Source of the DNA: a virus | IMG/VR virus record: IMGVR_UViG_3300020383_000006 | Span: 81,505 to 145,504 of that record | DNA length: 64,000 nt | Direction: 5' to 3' (one strand) | Shown: positions 1,669 to 57,255 of the stretch, piece by piece | Numbering within the stretch: position 1 is the first letter of the stretch | Layout of the letters: each line of letters starts with the position of its first letter | Translations under genes and position numbers: made by a program | Notes under the pieces: model-generated | Database searches by the model: none | Seen by the model: only the letters and a program-made list of their open reading frames with translations | Told to the model about the DNA's origin: nothing

Positions 1669-2949
1669 TTAGCCTTTAAGGTTAGTTACCGCGAATTTAC
1701 GGAAGTATTGGTTTTCACCTTGACCTAAACCTTTACCAGCTTTAGCAGAACCGTTAGCTTGGGTTTCAACGAAAGGATTCGCCTTAATACCGTAACGAGT
1801 CTGGAAACCGATACGTGGCTGGAAGCTATCTTCCGCAGTAGCACGTACCATTTCTAGTGGAACGTATGGGCACCAGTATACGCCAGCATCCCAAGCGTTT
1901 TGACCTTTATAACCCAATGTGATATAATCACGAGTTGCATAAGGGTCAACGTGAACTTGATAACGACCAAGCAAGATACCTGCAAAGGTGTTAGAAGTAA
2001 CGTCAACGTTCAAGCGAGAAGCCAACTCAGGGTTGTAATCCAATACGCCAGCCATGTTCAATGCAGAAGCAACGTTAGCTGAACAGATTACGCGGTTTGC
2101 TTTACCACGACGAGTTGAAATTGCGATTGCGTTAGCTTCAAGTTCAAGTTGGAACATAAGCCCTTTGAACTTCTCAACCAACCAACGACCGTCAGAGTCA
2201 GCAGAAAGGTCAAACATACCTGGAGTTGCAGCATCTTGAGCACCAATTTGTGCTGAAGTGTTGATTGTACGTAACAACTCACGGTCTTGTTCCGCTACAA
2301 TTTCAGTAGAAAGAACGTTAGCCAATTCACTTTCAGCGTCCAAGTTGTGGATTTGCTTCAAGTCGTGACGCAGTTCGTGGGTGAAAGAAGCTTTCAATTT
2401 ACGTGCTTTAGTTGAAACGTCAGTACGCTCAATTGAGAACGTCATTTCTTGCCAAGGATCGCCAGCTGTTGTACCAAGTTCTTCAGCTGCATTAGTTGAC
2501 ATACCAGTACCAGTAGAAGTACCTTCTGAAGGATCGCCTGTACCGAAGAAATCAGCAGGGAAACCTGAAGTATCACCAGCTTGAGTTCCAGCACCAGAGT
2601 GCGCAGTATTCGCTTCGTCGTGTAATGCTTCAGCGCCAGTTTGTGAAGTATAACGAGCACGCATAGCGAAGATTGAACCAGTTGGTCCAGATAGTGGTTG
2701 AACGCCAGCTAAATCAAAAGCCATAAGCTGAGGACCAGCACGACGAACCATACGGATCAATACTGGATCCCAGTTTGAAACACCACCAGTTTGAGTAGAA
2801 TGCTCAGAAGATTCGTTCATGCCTTGCATAAATTTGATCTGATTCGTAAGCATTGACTCAGTTACGTATTTTTTGTGACTTTCACCGATCTGAGGGAACT
2901 TTTCGCTCTCAATCAGCTCATTCACTTTTTCAGTAATCATATTATCCAT
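1669..2949 (-). CDS. gp23: major capsid protein
   Basis: WDPVLIRMVRR, GVQPLSGPTGSIFAMR, EMTFSIE, ELRHDLKQIHNLDAESELANVLSTEI, YCPYVPL-like and FQPRIGFQTRYG motifs. Confidence 0.98.
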   Translation of the reverse strand: MDNMITEKVNELIESEKFPQIGESHKKYVTESMLTNQIKFMQGMNESSEHSTQTGGVSNWDPVLIRMVRRAGPQLMAFDLAGVQPLSGPTGSIFAMRARYTSQTGAEALHDEANTAHSGAGTQAGDTSGFPADFFGTGDPSEGTSTGTGMSTNAAEELGTTAGDPWQEMTFSIERTDVSTKARKLKASFTHELRHDLKQIHNLDAESELANVLSTEIVAEQDRELLRTINTSAQIGAQDAATPGMFDLSADSDGRWLVEKFKGLMFQLELEANAIAISTRRGKANRVICSANVASALNMAGVLDYNPELASRLNVDVTSNTFAGILLGRYQVHVDPYATRDYITLGYKGQNAWDAGVYWCPYVPLEMVRATAEDSFQPRIGFQTRYGIKANPFVETQANGSAKAGKGLGQGENQYFRKFAVTNLKG

Positions 2950-3009: not shown

Positions 3010-3756
3010 TTAAACTCGAGACATTACGCTGTCTAACCAAGAATTAGTTGGTTGATTCTGATTATTTTGCTCATTAAGCGTGTTATCTGAATCTTCTTTA
3101 CTATTTTCTTGACCAGGAGCTAAAGACTCTTTTAAATCTTCCAATGCGCCTTTATACTGTGACTCATCAATGAATTTAACTTTAGAAGCCATTTCCTGAA
3201 GTTTTTCACGTTTAGTCTCAGTCATGTCCTCAGAAACGGTTTCAAATACTTTAGAGCGTTTAGACTCAGTAATTGTCGCTTCCAATTCAGTTTGCTTGTC
3301 TAATAGCTTATCAATTTTCTGATTAGCTTCAGCAAGATTTTGATTTGCTTTATCCAATTCATTTTCTGAACCATGAGGAACTTGAACGTTGAATTGTTCA
3401 GCAATACTACCTAAACCACCAAGGAAACTTTCAGCAAGTTTAACCTTGATACCGTTGTCGACAGCCAGTTTGTTTTCAGACATAAACTCTGAAGCGGCAT
3501 GATCAACATATTTACCAATTTGAGGAATAACTTCTTCGTTAATATATTGTTCCGTTTTGTCTTCCATCTCGGTAACAACATATTCTGAATAGTTTTCGGC
3601 CAATGCTGAATACTTATCTTCAGCCTTAGCTTCCTCTTCAGTTCTAATTTCTTCTCGGGCTTCAGAAATCTGATTTTCCAAGACCTTAGAAACCTTCGTT
3701 TTAAAGTCTTCACTGATTTCAACGCCATCGAAGATTTTCATTAGATCTTCGTTCAT
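3010..3756 (-). CDS. gp22: prohead core scaffold protein
   Basis: ISEDFKTK, acidic coiled coil, EFMSENKLAVDNGIKVKLAESFLGGL; lies directly upstream of gp23. Confidence 0.92.
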   Translation of the reverse strand: MNEDLMKIFDGVEISEDFKTKVSKVLENQISEAREEIRTEEEAKAEDKYSALAENYSEYVVTEMEDKTEQYINEEVIPQIGKYVDHAASEFMSENKLAVDNGIKVKLAESFLGGLGSIAEQFNVQVPHGSENELDKANQNLAEANQKIDKLLDKQTELEATITESKRSKVFETVSEDMTETKREKLQEMASKVKFIDESQYKGALEDLKESLAPGQENSKEDSDNTLNEQNNQNQPTNSWLDSVMSRV

Positions 3757-3825: not shown

Positions 3826-4245
3826 TTACTGTATGGAACTTAGAATAGTTTCTTTATTCTTTTTAATTGATCTTTCTATCTTTTTAAATAAATTTTCAAC
3901 GCTTTTAGAAGAAGAAACGGTTCTTATATCGTATAATCTAAACCCTTTCCACTCAGCCACTAATTTATCAGCCAAACGCATACCAGAAATATGAGTTTCA
4001 CCTTTTTCATGACCATATATTTCTAAAGTAGCAAATTTTCCACTTTGACCAATTAGATTAATTTTCATTAAATCTGAATGAAATTCCCCATCCTTTACTT
4101 TTACTTTTATTCCATCTTGATCAAATATTTTTGGGAATAATTTCATAGCTTCTTTTTTTGCTGATGAAAATAGTTCATTTTTATTATTGCGAAAATCAAA
4201 TGTTCCTGTTGGGGATTCATTCAGAAATTCTTTAAACGTTTTCAT
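3826..4245 (-). CDS. putative internal head protein with capsid-targeting leader (MKTFKEFLNE)
   Basis: Leader resembles the T4 IP capsid-targeting sequence; lies between gp21 and gp22. Confidence 0.7.
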   Translation of the reverse strand: MKTFKEFLNESPTGTFDFRNNKNELFSSAKKEAMKLFPKIFDQDGIKVKVKDGEFHSDLMKINLIGQSGKFATLEIYGHEKGETHISGMRLADKLVAEWKGFRLYDIRTVSSSKSVENLFKKIERSIKKNKETILSSIQ

Positions 4246-4248
4246 TGT

Positions 4249-4725
4249 TTATAAAAACCTCTTTGCTGATTCATTTGCAAGTTTTTTAATTTTTGCTAAT
4301 GTTAAACCACTTGCATCATGATTTCTATGACCTTTTACACTACCGCTAATTGAAGTTTTTTCAATTCCATTGACCACACCCCTACTATTGAATGTTAATT
4401 TGAATCTAAAAGAAACATCGACATCATCTAATGGAAATCCGTCACTACTAGAACCTCTGAATGTAGCTCTCGCATCAATAGTGGCTGAATCAGAATGAAT
4501 ATTTAATTGGGAACTAATATAGCTTGTTGTTAACCTACCATTGCCAGAATTTAAACTCCAACTTAACATTTTTGCTATTTTAGAATATCCTTTTTCAAGT
4601 ACTTTTAGATTAGCAATTTCTTGTGGAATTCTACCATTCAAATCATAAGTCTTATTAAAGAACTCAGGATTTTTTAAAAATTCTGGGAAATTTGATTCAT
4701 TCAAAAATTCTTTAAACGTTTTCAT
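4249..4725 (-). CDS. putative internal head protein with capsid-targeting leader (MKTFKEFLNE); start re-called at 4725
   Basis: An internal ATG at 4725 gives the same leader as the neighbour and has AGG upstream; the track start at 4749 overlaps the previous gene. Confidence 0.7.
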   Translation of the reverse strand: MKTFKEFLNESNFPEFLKNPEFFNKTYDLNGRIPQEIANLKVLEKGYSKIAKMLSWSLNSGNGRLTTSYISSQLNIHSDSATIDARATFRGSSSDGFPLDDVDVSFRFKLTFNSRGVVNGIEKTSISGSVKGHRNHDASGLTLAKIKKLANESAKRFL

Positions 4726-4742
4726 TATTTTAAACCTATATG

Positions 4743-5000
4743 TTACCACTGTTTAAATACATAATCATCTTTACTTAAATACCAATTTTCGGTGTTGCCG
4801 TTTTCTAATTCTACAGCAACTTCATAATTGTATCTATCTTCTCTTTCTATATCCTTTACGATCACGACAATAGGTTTTTCGAAAGAATCAGGATTATCTA
4901 CTTCAGCAGCCAAATAGCTTTTTCCTTTTCTTAATGAAGGCGGATTCATCCAACCTTCATCATTCATGTCTTCATTTAAAAAATCTTTGAATGTTTTCAT
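4743..5000 (-). CDS. putative internal head protein with capsid-targeting leader (MKTFKDFLNE)
   Basis: Leader motif; translationally coupled to the gp21 stop. Confidence 0.7.
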   Translation of the reverse strand: MKTFKDFLNEDMNDEGWMNPPSLRKGKSYLAAEVDNPDSFEKPIVVIVKDIEREDRYNYEVAVELENGNTENWYLSKDDYVFKQW

Positions 5001-50671: not shown

Positions 50672-51157
50672 TTATTTACCAAATATATGCTTCTCCGTCA
50701 TGATAATAAAGTTCCATCCTTTTTTATTACAATAGGACTCAGCATGTTTCCATTTTGCTTGGTTTATTTCAAAGGTCATACATTCTTGTAAAAACCTTGA
50801 TTTCTTTTTGCCTTGTTTCTTTGGTGGAAACTTTTCCTTTTCAGGTTTAACCTCAATAGCGGTAACTTGTTTCTTACCTTCTTTGTCTTTTGTCACTATA
50901 ACGAAGTCAACAAAATATCTATGTATCCTTCCATCTTTTGGTGACAAATACGGTATGACAAGCTCTTCACTGTTCCAAGCAAGTATTTTTGGGTCTAGGT
51001 CAAAGTTGTTCATACACTTCCTTTCCCATGAAGAACGATAGGTAATTTTTGATGTGTCACCTAGATATTTTTCAGGGAATTTTGGTATAAACCTGCCATG
51101 GTGTAATAATTTTTTACCTTTTTTCTTATCTTTTTTTAATTGCTCTCGAATGCTCAT
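50672..51157 (-). CDS. gp4: head completion nuclease
   Basis: GRFIPKFPEKYLGD, YRSSWE, WNSEELVIPY.SP.DGRIHRYFVDF, IEVKP, NQAKW. Confidence 0.95.
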   Translation of the reverse strand: MSIREQLKKDKKKGKKLLHHGRFIPKFPEKYLGDTSKITYRSSWERKCMNNFDLDPKILAWNSEELVIPYLSPKDGRIHRYFVDFVIVTKDKEGKKQVTAIEVKPEKEKFPPKKQGKKKSRFLQECMTFEINQAKWKHAESYCNKKGWNFIIMTEKHIFGK

Positions 51158-51534: not shown

Positions 51535-52047
51535 ATGTACAATGATGCGATTGAAAAAGAATATTTGAACCATAAAACCTTCATTGATATTTGTAATTCC
51601 TTAACAAACCTTTCAAAATGTACCTTTACAAAAGTTGCTTCAGTTATTGTTGACCAAGACGGAGGAATTATCTCTACTGGGGTTAATGGAACAATTGCTG
51701 GTTTACAAAACTGTTGCGACAACCATTTTGAAAAACGTGATGACCATATTGAATATTCGGAAAAGTATGAAGTTCATGCTGAAATGAACGCAATTATACG
51801 CCTTGCAAGATCCAGTATTAAACCAAACCGCATTACCCTCTACACTTCCCTCTCACCATGTAAAAACTGCTTAAAACACATTTTAGCACTCCAAAACAAC
51901 TATGTGAAAGTTGATGCAATTGTTTTTGGTGAATTGTATCACCGTTATACAAAAGAAGATATTGAACAAATGCGTAATTATGCTTACAGTGCTGGTATCA
52001 AATTGATTGACATCAATGAAATGTCAAAATTATTGAATAATAAATAA
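51535..52047 (+). CDS. cd: dCMP deaminase
   Basis: SKC..KVASVIV, ISTGVNGT, HAEMNAI, SPCKNC. Confidence 0.95.
   Translation: MYNDAIEKEYLNHKTFIDICNSLTNLSKCTFTKVASVIVDQDGGIISTGVNGTIAGLQNCCDNHFEKRDDHIEYSEKYEVHAEMNAIIRLARSSIKPNRITLYTSLSPCKNCLKHILALQNNYVKVDAIVFGELYHRYTKEDIEQMRNYAYSAGIKLIDINEMSKLLNNK
52039..52046 (+). promoter_or_regulatory. late promoter variant AATAAATA
   Basis: Heads the 52084-55363 gene run. Confidence 0.5.
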
Positions 52048-52083: not shown

Positions 52084-52518
52084 ATGAAAACTTTTATCAA
52101 CAAAAACAAAACAGTTTCCGAAGCATTTGAGTTTGTAACAAAAGAAGCTTCAAACAATGATGAAAAAATTAAAATACTACAAAAACTTAAATCCAGATCA
52201 ATGAAATGGGTTGTACAAGCAATGTATACAAGGGATTTAAGTAAGTACCCTATACCTAAGTTTGAATACAACCATCGAGATGCTGGTATTTGTTATGCGA
52301 CAATCCATAATTCAATTAATAGAATGGAAAGTGCTTTCCGAGTTTATGATAAAGGTAATGAAGCAAAATACAATGATCTAATGACGCTTGTATTACAAGA
52401 ATTACCTAAAGAAGAAGCTGAACTATTGATTGATGTTATGGCTGGTAAGAAAACACGGGGGATTTCTAAAACCGTTTGGAAAAAGATTTACCCTGAATTT
52501 TTTCGATCTGAGCAATAA
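52084..52518 (+). CDS. conserved T4-like hypothetical protein (DUF6433-like)
   Basis: EKIKILQK...LQELPKEEAELLI...GISKTVWKKIYPE pattern; sits next to FmdB. Confidence 0.6.
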   Translation: MKTFINKNKTVSEAFEFVTKEASNNDEKIKILQKLKSRSMKWVVQAMYTRDLSKYPIPKFEYNHRDAGICYATIHNSINRMESAFRVYDKGNEAKYNDLMTLVLQELPKEEAELLIDVMAGKKTRGISKTVWKKIYPEFFRSEQ

Positions 52519-52577: not shown

Positions 52578-52841
52578 ATGCCAATTTACGATTACCGTTG
52601 CGGTTCTTGTGGAAATCAGTTTTCACAAAGAAAGAAAATATCTGAAATGGAAGCTCCATTAAGTGAACCTTGTCCGGAGTGTGAAAAGAAAGGTGAAATT
52701 ACAAAAATTATAACATCAGCCCCTGTTGTTGGATATTCAATTGCTCCAAGCCTTAAAACAACAGACAATTTCAATTCTAGATTAAAAGAAATGAAAAGTA
52801 AAGCTGGTAAGGGAAACACGTTTTCGGATTCAATAAGGTAA
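52578..52841 (+). CDS. FmdB-family zinc-ribbon protein; start re-called at 52578
   Basis: MPIYDYRCGSCG...PCPEC; AGGA RBS upstream of ATG 52578. Confidence 0.9.
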   Translation: MPIYDYRCGSCGNQFSQRKKISEMEAPLSEPCPECEKKGEITKIITSAPVVGYSIAPSLKTTDNFNSRLKEMKSKAGKGNTFSDSIR

Positions 52842-52846
52842 ATTGA

Positions 52847-53404
52847 ATGAAAAAGTTTCAAGAATTTTTAAATGAATCTAAAACCGTTACTGTTTACCAC
52901 GGCAATAAATACGGTACATCCAAAATAAATCCGAAACACATGGATTCCAGTATAAACGAACATGGAGTTGGGATTTATTTTACGGATGAATTTAATACTT
53001 CTAAAATGTACGGTGAACATGTAGTAAAAGCAGAAATTAACCCTTCCGATTTTATTGAATCTAGATCTTTTATAGAAAAATTAGGTAAGTCATTTTTTAA
53101 TCTATTAAAATATTTGTATAAAATTGAACCTGAAGGAATTTGGTATTTGGTAACTGATTATGGTATGGAAGTTTTTAATCCAGAAGATGTAGAAGAAAGT
53201 CATTTGTATGAACTATATAAAATTGCTGGGAAAGAACAAATAAGGCATATGCAACAAACTTTAGTCGATAACACTTCTGTTGAAGATTTTGTGAAAGGTT
53301 GGTTAAAAACAATAAAATACAAAGGCACTTACCAAAAACAACAAACGGGTGAAACGTTTTATATGATAATAGACCCTAATGTAAAATTAGAAAAAGTAAT
53401 TTAA
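52847..53404 (+). CDS. capsid-targeting-leader protein with an ADP-ribosyltransferase-like domain
   Basis: MKKFQEFLNE leader; VYHG...GVGIYFTD...MYG..V and C-terminal YKG...YMIIDP. Confidence 0.65.
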   Translation: MKKFQEFLNESKTVTVYHGNKYGTSKINPKHMDSSINEHGVGIYFTDEFNTSKMYGEHVVKAEINPSDFIESRSFIEKLGKSFFNLLKYLYKIEPEGIWYLVTDYGMEVFNPEDVEESHLYELYKIAGKEQIRHMQQTLVDNTSVEDFVKGWLKTIKYKGTYQKQQTGETFYMIIDPNVKLEKVI

Positions 53405-53435
53405 AAATTATAATAGGCTAAATATTAACCGTAAC

Positions 53436-53454
53436 ATAGGATAATTTATCCTAT
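53436..53454 (+). promoter_or_regulatory. hairpin in the 5' leader, preceded by a CTAAATA late-promoter variant (53418-53424)
   Basis: ATAGGATA-ATT-TATCCTAT perfect 8-bp stem. Confidence 0.45.
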
Positions 53455-53475
53455 TCAAATTAAAGGATTAGAAAA

Positions 53476-53877
53476 ATGGATAAAACATTTCAAGAATTTT
53501 TAAACGGGGAACCTGTAGAACAACTAGAAGAAGCAACTTCTAGAGGAAATGGCTGGATGGAAATTGATTCAAATTCTAACGAAATAAAAAGTTTAGAATT
53601 TACTCTCGTAATGAAATCTGATGCAGATATGCCAAATATCGAATTAGATTTTAATTATGATAGCAGCAAACCAAGTCTAACGAAACCTTCTTTAAAATTT
53701 AGTTCAGGAAGATTCAAAGATGAACGCCACTATAAAAAGTTCACCAAAACTGTAAATGACCTATTAGAAAAAATAGGTGAGTTAGAATTAGAAATTGGTA
53801 TGGCTTCAGGTTCTTCTGGTTATTCTAAAGTTCAAAAAGAACTTAAGAAAATGGGAATAAAAGTAAAAATAGACTAA
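53476..53877 (+). CDS. putative internal head protein (MDKTFQEFLNG...LEE)
   Basis: Capsid-targeting-like leader. Confidence 0.65.
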   Translation: MDKTFQEFLNGEPVEQLEEATSRGNGWMEIDSNSNEIKSLEFTLVMKSDADMPNIELDFNYDSSKPSLTKPSLKFSSGRFKDERHYKKFTKTVNDLLEKIGELELEIGMASGSSGYSKVQKELKKMGIKVKID

Positions 53878-53878
53878 T

Positions 53879-54064
53879 ATGAAATCATTTCAAGAGTTTG
53901 TAAACGAAGAAAAGAAAGAAGAATCTACTGAATATCAGAAATTCTTCAAAAAAGCGCTTAAGAAATTTGGTGTTGAAGAACCGGATGAACTTGAAGGCGA
54001 AAAAGAAAAAGAATTTTATGACTATGTAGACGCTAATTGGGAATCTGAAAAGGAAGAAGATTAA
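53879..54064 (+). CDS. putative internal head protein (MKSFQEFVNE)
   Basis: Leader motif; highly charged 61-aa protein. Confidence 0.65.
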   Translation: MKSFQEFVNEEKKEESTEYQKFFKKALKKFGVEEPDELEGEKEKEFYDYVDANWESEKEED

Positions 54065-54330
54065 TGAAACCATTTAAACAATTTCTAAAAGAAAAAAGAG
54101 TAGAATCAAACGATTTACTCGATGAACTTCAAGAAATTTATTATGACGTTTCTATGTCTGATAATGAATCAGGTTATATGATGGAAGTTATTGACTTCTT
54201 ATCGGATCCTGATGAAGAAGATCCTGAGCTTGCATTAGATAGTTTAGATAGAATTAAAAGGTTAGTTAAGAAATACTTGGGAATAAGTAAATTTTACGAG
54301 CTTGTTGATTTTATTAAAAGTTACCAATAA
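54064..54330 (+). CDS. putative internal head protein (MKPFKQFLKE)
   Basis: Leader motif; acidic helical body. Confidence 0.65.
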   Translation: MKPFKQFLKEKRVESNDLLDELQEIYYDVSMSDNESGYMMEVIDFLSDPDEEDPELALDSLDRIKRLVKKYLGISKFYELVDFIKSYQ

Positions 54331-54360
54331 AACAGGATAAAAAATGAAATCATTTAAAGA
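54278..54360 (+). repeat. imperfect direct repeat, copy 1 (about 83 bp)
   Basis: Shares the exact 25-mer ATTTTATTAAAAGTTACCAATAAAA (54308-54332) and similar flanks with copy 2. Confidence 0.9.
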
Positions 54361-55075
54361 ATTCATAAAAGAAAGTACAGTACCTTATAATGTTTGGGGA
54401 CCTAAAAAATATGAAGGTGCTTATGGTAAAGGTTCTTTCGACAGAAAATTATTTGATGAAATAAAAAAAGGTTACAATTTTAAACGGCTTGGAATAAAAC
54501 CTTATGGTATAAGTAGATCAAATATGCTGTTTTTAAAAGATAGTTCAAAAAATATATACAAAATAAGGTTAGGATACCATGACAATATCATAGTTGGTGA
54601 TTTACATTCAGAATTTACAACTGAATTTAAACCAAGAATGAACACAAGTAGTTATGTCGACGATCCTTATTCATTTTTTAATGCGTTAATTGACGTTAAC
54701 GAAAAAGAAATTTATGAAGGATTGGTGGAAATCCAAAAGAAATTTTCCGGAGAAGGCATACCGAAAGTTTATGTTATAAAAATACCGAATGTCAATAAAA
54801 GAACTGGTAATACTGGTTTTAATTATAATTTTTATGAAGAATTTGATGATTCTAGTTACGAATTATATGAACTAGAAGATTATGGAATCAGTTTAATTGC
54901 AGCAAAAGGAACTGATTTAAAAGTCGGTCAAGAAATTTTTGTTGTAAATAATGAAAGACCTGGATACGATGCATTTTCTAATGGTAAGTTATATGCACCA
55001 TACAAAATTAAAAAAGTATTGAAACCGACGGAACTTGATACTTCTAGAGTAGGATCAATCAAGTTTATAGACTAA
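54344..55075 (+). CDS. putative internal head protein (MKSFKEFIKE)
   Basis: Leader motif; flanked by the direct repeats. Confidence 0.65.
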   Translation: MKSFKEFIKESTVPYNVWGPKKYEGAYGKGSFDRKLFDEIKKGYNFKRLGIKPYGISRSNMLFLKDSSKNIYKIRLGYHDNIIVGDLHSEFTTEFKPRMNTSSYVDDPYSFFNALIDVNEKEIYEGLVEIQKKFSGEGIPKVYVIKIPNVNKRTGNTGFNYNFYEEFDDSSYELYELEDYGISLIAAKGTDLKVGQEIFVVNNERPGYDAFSNGKLYAPYKIKKVLKPTELDTSRVGSIKFID

Positions 55076-55080
55076 CTAGA

Positions 55081-55164
55081 TGGGTATGAGCAAATTTAAC
55101 GAACTTGTTTATTTTATTAAAAGTTACCAATAAAAGAGGAAATTAAAATGAAGTCATTTAAAGA
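55081..55164 (+). repeat. imperfect direct repeat, copy 2
   Basis: Exact 25-mer at 55111-55135; encodes the relic MGMSKFNELVYFIKSYQ* (55080-55133). Confidence 0.9.
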
Positions 55165-55363
55165 GTTTAATTGTGGATCAGTAAATGAATCTAGATTCAA
55201 AACTTCTAGAGGAAATATTACTATTTTTGAAGGAATTGGCCCAAACGCCGAAAAATTCTTTATCAGTATAAAAGGTAAAGTTGTAGAAATTCCACCTGAA
55301 GAAGTTGGTCCTTTTGTTGATGCTGCTAAAGATTTTGAAAAATATTACATGAGCATGGCTTAA
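55148..55363 (+). CDS. putative internal head protein (MKSFKEFNCGSVNE)
   Basis: Leader with an extended spacer before the VNE site; strong GAGGA RBS. Confidence 0.65.
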   Translation: MKSFKEFNCGSVNESRFKTSRGNITIFEGIGPNAEKFFISIKGKVVEIPPEEVGPFVDAAKDFEKYYMSMA

Positions 55364-55386: not shown

Positions 55387-55427
55387 AAAATACAGGCACG
55401 ATTTTTAAATCCTCTGCCTGTATTTTT
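55387..55427 (+). terminator. terminator hairpin ending the leader-protein cluster, overlapped by AATAAATA (55380-55387)
   Basis: AAAATACAGGCA...TGCCTGTATTTT inverted repeat with T-tract. Confidence 0.7.
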
Positions 55428-55450
55428 AATTACAAAAAGGAAATTCTTCT

Positions 55451-56538: not shown

Positions 56539-57255
56539 TTGTTAAAGTTCAAAGAGTTTCAATGGCAAACTGATATCCAATTTGACGAGGTTGAGGTGAT
56601 TGAAGGTTCACCTCGACTTTACGTCACACCACATGGAAAATACCCTTCTATGACTTCATTACTTTCTGTCTTTGATGATGGAAGTATAGATGATTGGGTT
56701 AAACGGGTAGGCAAGGAAGAAGCCAAAAGAATTTCTGAAGAAGCCATTAACCGTGGAAACGCTCTTCACGATTATAATGAGAAATATTTACAGAATCGAT
56801 TGAAGCGCTCAGAGCTCCGAGGACAAGCCAAAATTTTGTTCAATAGGGTTAAGCGCCACCTTGATAAAATACAGCTTGTAATAGCCACTGAGGTGCCTTT
56901 ATGGTCTGATAAACATAAATACGCAGGTCGGGTTGACTGTATTTGTATGATAGATGACCAAATCACTATACTTGACCATAAGAATACCCGCAAAGATATT
57001 AATATAAACCTTCCTTGGAACAGAAAGAAACTTTTCAAGTACATGATTCAAATATGTGGGTATGCTAGAGCACTTCATGAAATGAAAGGTATTAAAGCAA
57101 CTCAGGGTTGTTTAATCATCGGTAATCATGAATCTTCAAGTTCTGATGTCGTCAAGTTCCAAATAGAATCAATGCAAAAAGAACTTGATATCGTTATCAA
57201 CGCTTACTTTAATGATGGGGAAGGTATTGAAGAATCCTTATATTTCAAAATGTAA
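56539..57255 (+). CDS. PD-(D/E)XK exonuclease
   Basis: RLYVTPHGKYPSMTSLL, RGNALH, E.PLWS...AGRVDCI, ILDHKN, Q..GYA. Confidence 0.9.
   Translation: MLKFKEFQWQTDIQFDEVEVIEGSPRLYVTPHGKYPSMTSLLSVFDDGSIDDWVKRVGKEEAKRISEEAINRGNALHDYNEKYLQNRLKRSELRGQAKILFNRVKRHLDKIQLVIATEVPLWSDKHKYAGRVDCICMIDDQITILDHKNTRKDININLPWNRKKLFKYMIQICGYARALHEMKGIKATQGCLIIGNHESSSSDVVKFQIESMQKELDIVINAYFNDGEGIEESLYFKM

Follow-up and report, generated by a model that had tools for sequence, protein, structure and literature searches.

Why should six consecutive genes, whose products are otherwise dissimilar, all begin with the same short peptide? The question is raised by an array at positions 52847-55363 (+ strand) of the stretch analysed here (the window), the last 64 kb of the 145.5-kb single-contig virus record IMGVR_UViG_3300020383_000006 (CheckV completeness 90%). 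The six genes share the consensus start M-K-x-F-x-E-F-(L/I/V)-x-E, and a leader of this kind is known from phage T4 as the capsid targeting sequence (CTS) of internal proteins (IPs). We consider it probable that the six are IP genes, belonging to a marine phage that is T4-like but distant from T4 and uncultured, and that their products are targeted to the capsid. Packaging, cleavage and injection we infer from T4. All six are open reading frames located where a first-pass annotation, made by a model from the letters alone, had placed them, with the N-termini that it quoted (an arrow marks the predicted cut):

52847..53404, + strand: array gene 1, 185 aa; leader MKKFQEFLNE↓S and a predicted H-Y-Y-E ADP-ribosyltransferase (ART) domain of ART-PolyVal / AcrIF11-like type
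53476..53877, + strand: array gene 2, 133 aa; long leader MDKTFQEFLNGEPVEQLEE↓A; predicted propeptide of 19 aa, as in T4 IPI
53879..54064, + strand: array gene 3, 61 aa; MKSFQEFVNE↓E; acidic; phrog_28651
54064..54330, + strand: array gene 4, 88 aa; MKPFKQFLKE↓K; mature part very acidic, pI 4.2
54344..55075, + strand: array gene 5, 243 aa; MKSFKEFIKE↓S; ORFan
55148..55363, + strand: array gene 6, 71 aa; MKSFKEFNCGSVNE↓S, a 14-aa leader

The internal proteins of T4 and their CTS (Mullaney & Black, 1996, as reviewed in PMC9026906 and PMC3012670) provide the standard of comparison. The first 10 residues of IPIII are enough for head loading, mutagenesis assigned positions 4 and 7 to targeting and positions 8 and 10 to processing, and propeptides are 10-19 residues long; the CTS has been suggested to be an evolutionary device to load varied proteins (PMC9026906). 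In the GenBank record of T4, IPII and IPIII begin MKTYQEFIAE, and IPI begins MKTFKEFTST and has a 19-residue propeptide ending ITE↓A. The commonest leader in the window, MKTFKEFLNE, is identical to that of IPII and IPIII at 7 of 10 positions, and its first seven residues are those of IPI. Positions 4, 7, 8 and 10 of the T4 CTS are all kept in the window leaders. The aromatic residue at 4 and Phe at 7 are present in the six array genes (shifted by one residue in gene 2) and in three genes of the head module described below, and the leaders of genes 1-6 end in LNE10, LEE19, VNE10, LKE10, IKE10 and VNE14, respectively. The match of these ends to cleavage-type sites in gp23 and gp22, noted in the first-pass annotation, is borne out, as the pattern (L/I/V/M)-x-E↓S is found in gp23 (MNE↓S), gp21 and gp22.

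A further three leader genes, all beginning MKTFK(E/D)FLNE, occupy the - strand interval from the prohead protease to the scaffold, bringing the total to the nine previously counted in the window. The genome-wide search that had been proposed for the leader pattern returned 16 genes with a strict expression and 18 with a looser one (Tyr at position 7 or Leu/Met at 4 allowed); 12 of these 18 are tied to a late signal or to the head operon. The similarity could in principle be a compositional or translational artefact of an AT-rich genome: G+C content is ~31-40%, Lys, Phe, Glu and Asn are common, and the start ATG AAA .. TTT .. GAA TTT uses AT-rich codons. However, in a crude gene set of 198 genes (45,780 residues) the motif [KDLI]xFx[EQD]F occurs 15 times at the N-terminus and only twice internally. 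Two internal matches are about the chance rate, thus the N-terminal enrichment is real, and phage pf16 has none. Chance and composition are rejected as the cause by this count, and we give the artefact explanation practically no credence.

Outside the leader there is little to unite these proteins. All-against-all BLASTP of the parts after residue 10 detected no significant similarity among the cargoes, in agreement with the earlier claim that they are mutually dissimilar, and searches of Pfam and PHROGs with 16 of the 18 leader proteins gave, gene 1 aside, only weak or uninformative matches. At the nucleotide level, the leaders are 70% identical and their flanks 33%. Synonymous Leu and Glu codons differ between the leaders of different genes, indicating selection on the peptide; judged from the codons, conservation of the leader acts at the protein level. 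This bears on a rival explanation in which the array genes encode cytoplasmic accessory proteins, only the three head-module genes are packaged, and the leader with its ribosome binding site (RBS) region is a recombination joint that moves cassettes. We think this rather unlikely. The synonymous differences point to the peptide as the object of selection, and conservation covers the cleavage positions (8 and 10) as well as those for targeting. Further evidence on both sides is considered below with promoters, repeats and homologs.

The virus is a T4-type myovirus. Genes for a portal and a gp68-like protein lie on its - strand together with those for the gp21 prohead protease, gp22 scaffold and gp23 capsid protein; tail and fibre genes come next. 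The closest cultured relative is Pseudomonas phage pf16, with which it shares 64% identity in the capsid protein; the corresponding values are ~50% for pelagiphages, Methylophilales phages and cyanophages, and 33% for T4 gp23. Near-identical contigs are present in TARA Oceans metagenomes, and from this provenance the phage is marine and uncultured. Both head proteins with which a CTS would be expected to interact are encoded in the head module, on either side of the three leader genes:

1669..2949, - strand: major capsid protein, gp23-type; phrog_138; candidate maturation site MQGMNE↓S
3010..3756, - strand: scaffold, gp22-type, the expected docking core; phrog_237 (E 2e-50); 19 [LIVM]xE sites
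3826..4245, - strand: head-module leader gene, MKTFKEFLNE↓S, 139 aa, basic
4249..4725, - strand: head-module leader gene, MKTFKEFLNE↓S, 158 aa, basic
4743..5000, - strand: head-module leader gene, MKTFKDFLNE↓D, 85 aa
4997..5644, - strand: prohead protease, gp21-type, the expected leader-removing enzyme; phrog_207 (E 1.7e-68)

The LTE65↓A site of T4 gp23 falls in the aligned N-terminal region of the window gp23. We compared the slot between gp21 and gp22 across 11 IMG/VR relatives whose gp21 is 66-75% identical. It contains 0, 1, 2 or 3 different genes, all with such leaders (e.g., MKSMKQFLNE, MKQFKEFVNE, MKTFKEYLQE and MRSFLEFMNE). By sequence comparison, then, this is a position where the tag is constant and the cargo changes, beside the protease that should cut the tag. 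No genes were found between protease and scaffold in pf16, and none of its genes has a leader by the strict pattern. The linkage of the tag to the gp21-gp22 slot across relatives also bears on whether the shared N-terminus could be a tag for some other process (recognition by a modifying enzyme or a chaperone, or a degradation signal). Set against this idea are that linkage, the near-identity of the leader to the experimentally defined T4 CTS, and the lack of any candidate partner enzyme seen next to the arrays; we regard it as very improbable.

The likeness to T4 IP genes extends beyond the N-terminal leader, which in either phage runs to 10-19 residues and combines an aromatic residue at position 4 with Phe at 7 and (L/I/V)-x-E at 8-10. 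In both phages the cargoes are small and unrelated, gp21 and gp22 are present, the genes are dispersed in plastic loci among non-structural genes, and genes for DNA modification are encoded. There are also differences. The phage described here is very distant from T4 (capsid protein 33% identical) and has ~18 leader genes where T4 has 3. Three of them are inside the head operon, in the gp21-gp22 slot, whereas T4 has no gene in that slot (gene 21 ends at 104086 and gene 22 starts at 104117). One cargo here is a predicted enzyme, and the set as a whole is a predicted one.

If the array products are packaged, their genes should be expressed late, with the head genes. The relevant signals and the genes upstream of the array are as follows:

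52039..52046, + strand: late-promoter variant AATAAATA; the ATG at 52084 follows after 45 nt, and the array operon likely starts here
52084..52518, + strand: first operon gene, 144 aa, phrog_461; starts MKTF, no CTS
52578..52841, + strand: second operon gene, Zn-ribbon protein, 87 aa from ATG; phrog_385; PF09723 on the identical gene of contig L017
53387..53414, + strand: possible sigma-70-like promoter TTAGAA-16-TATAAT between genes 1 and 2; found by eye, weak, not listed by the promoter scan
53437..53455, + strand: perfect palindrome ATAGGATAA-T-TTATCCTAT, 19 nt, just before gene 2; unique in the genome
55387..55431, + strand: intrinsic terminator closing the array

A gp55-like late sigma factor is encoded in the genome, and the octamer TATAAATA is found 48-58 nt ahead of gp23, gp22 and the tail-tube gene. 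We counted all genomic copies of this octamer and its variants that lie 30-70 nt upstream of a same-strand start. This is the case for 10 of 20 copies of TATAAATA, 12 of 21 copies of AATAAATA (including those of sheath, fibre and baseplate genes), 22 of 41 copies for [TA]ATAAATA combined, and 0 of 13 copies for CATAAATA / GATAAATA. The first-pass annotation had listed two late-promoter variants at the array. Position supports the one at 52039, and does not support CTAAATAT at 53418, only 3 of 10 genomic copies of which precede genes. Upstream of three solo leader genes (genome 19736, 60516 and 62666), [TA]ATAAATA is present at -38 to -44. The terminator said to close the array was recovered as a hairpin (55387-55426, -16.3 kcal/mol, z -6.7) followed by a U run, and apart from a weak intragenic match, no + strand terminator was found between the 52039 site and the array. 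Thus, the array plausibly forms the distal part of a late operon.

The sequence TTTACT-N16-18-TATAAT was located seven times, without variation in the -35 hexamer (genome 2823, 22406, 25435, 31675, 34757 and 63598; window 56182). This is probably the early promoter consensus of the phage, and none of the copies precedes the array. Cytoplasmic products would be in keeping with the location of the array next to genes of early type (cd, phoH and an exonuclease) and on their strand, and with the absence of an exact TATAAATA on the + strand upstream of it. Against this, AATAAATA serves bona fide structural genes and is at the right distance here. Also, T4 ipII and ipIII sit in the same kind of neighbourhood, among early-strand genes, so that the setting of the array is no argument against late expression.

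The surroundings of the array are plastic. PhoH, used as a probe for syntenic IMG/VR loci, found none; the comparison was made instead with G001, a complete relative of 137.9 kb with terminal repeats. In G001 the order baseplate, TnsA-like, cd, p144 (the 144-aa gene), Zn-ribbon, phoH, exonuclease is kept, with nothing array-like between the Zn-ribbon gene and phoH. Gene 3 is the only array cargo with a homolog in G001 (27793-27614, 47.5% identity); this homolog is placed after phoH, and three other leader genes follow the exonuclease, among ~10 leader genes in total. Within the array, gene 5 is bracketed by an 87-105-nt direct repeat:

54258..54363, + strand: repeat copy 1, made of the gene 4 tail, the RBS and the gene 5 leader; 78-88% identical to 55061-55167
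55061..55167, + strand: repeat copy 2, made of a remnant of a gene-4-like tail (ending ..FIKSYQ and a stop), the RBS and the gene 6 leader

The repeat looks like a recombination scar, and its make-up of gene 4 tail, RBS and leader is as expected if cassettes recombine at the leader. That the repeat takes in the leader is also a point in favor of the joint postulated for cytoplasmic products. A TnsA-like endonuclease-domain gene (50672-51157, - strand; PF08722 on the identical gene of L017) is located between the baseplate genes and cd. A blastn search of the array region against GenBank phages gave a low-complexity match to a 'DNA ligase 1' gene of a Tenacibaculum phage as its sole match, which we judged irrelevant.

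What, then, would be delivered? Gene 1 probably encodes an active H-Y-Y-E ADP-ribosyltransferase of the ART-PolyVal/AcrIF11-like type, according to homologs and a predicted structure. The protein itself scores 20 bits against PF18760 (curated cut-off 31.2). Its homologs are 34-72% identical and three carry the PF18760 ART-PolyVal domain; the precomputed PF18760 matches are on homologs at 52-53% identity. The AF2 model is confident (pLDDT 90.2), with the leader as a low-confidence appendage (pLDDT 49). In Foldseek searches, the first hit of the model was AcrIF11 Pae1 (6KYF, E 5e-5) and the third AcrIF11 Pae2 (8DWQ, E 2e-3). VIA-align matched 231 chains at Z of at least 5, of which the best 50 were all ART-fold proteins or 9k3a_B, a domain of the cyanophage A4 pre-ejectosome protein. 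The latter was the best match (Z 9.4, rmsd 4.6, 161 aligned); diphtheria toxin (Z 8.2, 113 aligned), tankyrase 2 (Z 7.5) and AcrIF11 (Z 7.4) were also matched. H18 (in YHG), Y44 (in GIYF) and Y55 are invariant across the gene 1 homologs, and E169 precedes the last strand (170-174) in 6 of 8 sequences. The motif is H-Y-E, not R-S-E, and motif and strand order suggest that H18, Y44, Y55 and E169 have catalytic roles.

The region of 9k3a chain B matched by the gene 1 model comprises residues 957-1602, and the paper describing the structure makes no mention of ADP-ribosyltransferase. The structural match suggests that an ART-like domain may have gone undescribed in this podoviral ejection protein, which is internal to the capsid.

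The closer homologs of gene 1 keep CTS-like starts (MIKFTSFLNE, MILKTFKQFNE and MSFIEFLNE). One homolog is flanked by the gp41 helicase and primase genes in another T4-like contig, thus the tagged enzyme moves as a unit. Such retention of the leader by ART homologs of other lineages at other sites again argues against cytoplasmic products. The most distant homologs lack a CTS-like start; two of these leaderless proteins (P0006 and P0008) are fusions of the ART to a conserved C-terminal extension of ~130 aa.

The gene 1 product can be compared with several known kinds of ADP-ribosyltransferase. T4 Alt is a large, head-packaged and injected protein of the R-S-E (Alt/VIP2) clade. For the gene 1 product, loading into a T4-type head, trimming by the prohead protease and injection are likewise predicted, but this ADP-ribosyltransferase is a 175-aa H-Y-Y-E enzyme with an IP-type CTS. 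No match to PF03496 (Alt-type ART) was found in this genome, but control genomes were equally silent, so that absence is not established. Like the gene 1 model, the AcrIF11 structures (6KYF and 8DWQ) have their His and Tyr strands at the N-terminal side and an acidic catalytic residue at the C-terminal side, separated by a variable helical insert; identity is only 12-16%. AcrIF11, an anti-CRISPR ADP-ribosyltransferase, is expressed after entry and is not known as a packaged protein. The ART-PolyVal domains (PF18760; Tox-ART-HYD2 clade) of polyvalent proteins are predicted to be delivered with DNA at entry (Iyer et al., 2017, PMC5512222). The same domain is found on gene 1 homologs; unlike the polyvalent proteins, gene 1 encodes a solo domain with a T4 CTS, rather than a module of a giant multidomain protein. 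The gene 1 product probably modifies a host protein on entry.

The other five cargoes are small and lineage-specific, and their most likely, though speculative, role is inhibition of host defences. Word-indexed and exhaustive HMMER searches with genes 2 and 5 detected no relatives beyond the phage's own near-identical copies, gene 5 had only self-matches among 1.84 billion representatives, and the ESM Atlas gave no usable match for either. Predicted structures of both are poor; for gene 5, single-sequence AF2 gave no usable model (pLDDT 39). For genes 4 and 6, there was no match in Pfam or PHROGs. Of the cargoes, which the first-pass annotation held to be probably rich in unknown anti-defence or host-takeover factors, one could be assigned, as a predicted ADP-ribosyltransferase.

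The genome offers a context for counter-defence. At L014:8898-12627 (genome 66898-70627) we identified genes for a TET/JBP dioxygenase (PF12851, E 6e-23) and a TET-associated glycosyltransferase (TAGT; PF20691, E 8e-12), joined just upstream of the DNA polymerase by genes for kinase-like and cytidylyltransferase-like proteins. From its gene content, the region looks like a cytosine hypermodification cassette. Thus, the phage probably carries glycosylated cytosines. The first-pass annotation credited T4 with three internal proteins, one of them anti-restriction; the latter statement is outdated: Ip1, Ip2 and Ip3 all inhibit GmrSD-type (type IV) enzymes that attack glucosylated DNA (PMC12373910). 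By analogy, it is a reasonable guess that some of the cargoes may inhibit GmrSD-type enzymes as well.

Leader-like starts are also found elsewhere in the genome. A second cluster of four leader genes (L013:13087-15019; genome 31087-33019, - strand) has the starts MKTLREYISE, MKSFKEYLNE, MKTFKQFTES and MKSFQQFTEA, the last two behind an early-type promoter and lacking (L/I/V)xE. Interspersed among the four are genes for a coiled-coil membrane protein (140 aa) and a lipoprotein (118 aa, LLSGCS), which resemble an i-spanin/o-spanin pair. In the window, the PD-(D/E)XK exonuclease ORF (56539-57255, TTG start) begins with the leader-like MLKFKEFQW. We excluded it from the count, as it has no cleavage site and a clear nuclease body; its start is probably a coincidence or a relic of a cassette joint.

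Several observations weigh against capsid targeting of the whole array. In 4 of the 6 array genes the residue after the cut site is S or A, but in genes 3 and 4 it is E or K. T4 cleavage sites are mostly followed by A, G or S, and processing of the gene 3 and 4 products is uncertain. The leader genes at genome 31617 and 31314, which follow an early-type promoter and have no (L/I/V)xE, are doubtful members of the set. A leader-like N-terminus thus also occurs where packaging is doubtful, which favors cytoplasmic roles. The operon promoter is a one-base variant and not TATAAATA, and earlier expression could result from read-through from the upstream cd gene or from the weak sigma-70-like site at 53387-53414. 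Finally, gene 5 is frameshifted in two environmental assemblies (a TARA contig and a Logan assembly). In L017 (L017:6428-7158), the A7 run at 54463-54469 is reduced to A6, splitting the gene into 50-aa and 183-aa calls; the window copy is intact. The loss may reflect true slippage, a dispensable cassette in decay or a sequencing error at the homopolymer.

On balance we still favor IP genes, and propose the following course of events, modelled on T4. Each array product would carry a T4-type CTS that docks it on the gp22 scaffold core during prohead assembly. The gp21 protease would then cut after the Glu of (L/I/V)-x-E, at residue 10, or at 14 or 19 in the long leaders, and the mature cargo would be kept in the head with the DNA and enter the next cell before phage transcription. 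The array would be expressed from a late operon (promoter 52039, terminator 55387-55431), and the region around it is plastic, with cassettes trading places through recombination at the leader they share. At entry, cargo 1 would act as an ADP-ribosyltransferase on a host protein, and the remaining five cargoes would inhibit host defences, in line with the TET/JBP and glycosyltransferase genes.

The principle of CTS-loaded cargo is already published for T-even phages; many T-even ip genes were found via the signal sequence, and at least ten have been reported (PMC12373910). What is added here is a larger set in a distant phage. The earlier suggestion of an expanded capsid-targeted set holds in silico, given the CTS positions, the presence of gp21, gp22 and a late sigma factor, the head-operon genes, the late-promoter variant, and ~18 leader genes compared to 3 in T4. 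A literature search, which was not exhaustive, found no report of the tag in marine or distant T4-type phages, nor on an ART-PolyVal enzyme.

Proteins injected with the DNA act before phage gene expression, which makes them a likely place for counter-defence factors. Should the leader prove a dependable address label at this distance from T4, it would provide a sequence rule for listing candidate injected effectors of uncultured marine phages; in the present phage these would be one compact ADP-ribosyltransferase and at least a dozen orphan proteins. More tentatively, and with somewhat less than even confidence, we suggest that the tag is near-unchanged across very distant T4-type phages, so that the injected proteome can be read from sequence, and that the ~18 effectors might include an AcrIF11-like ART that disables a defence or hijacks a host machine, plus orphan inhibitors of enzymes attacking glycosylated DNA. 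The locus may also indicate how such arsenals grow, by the swapping of cassettes at a shared leader, in the gp21-gp22 slot and around phoH.

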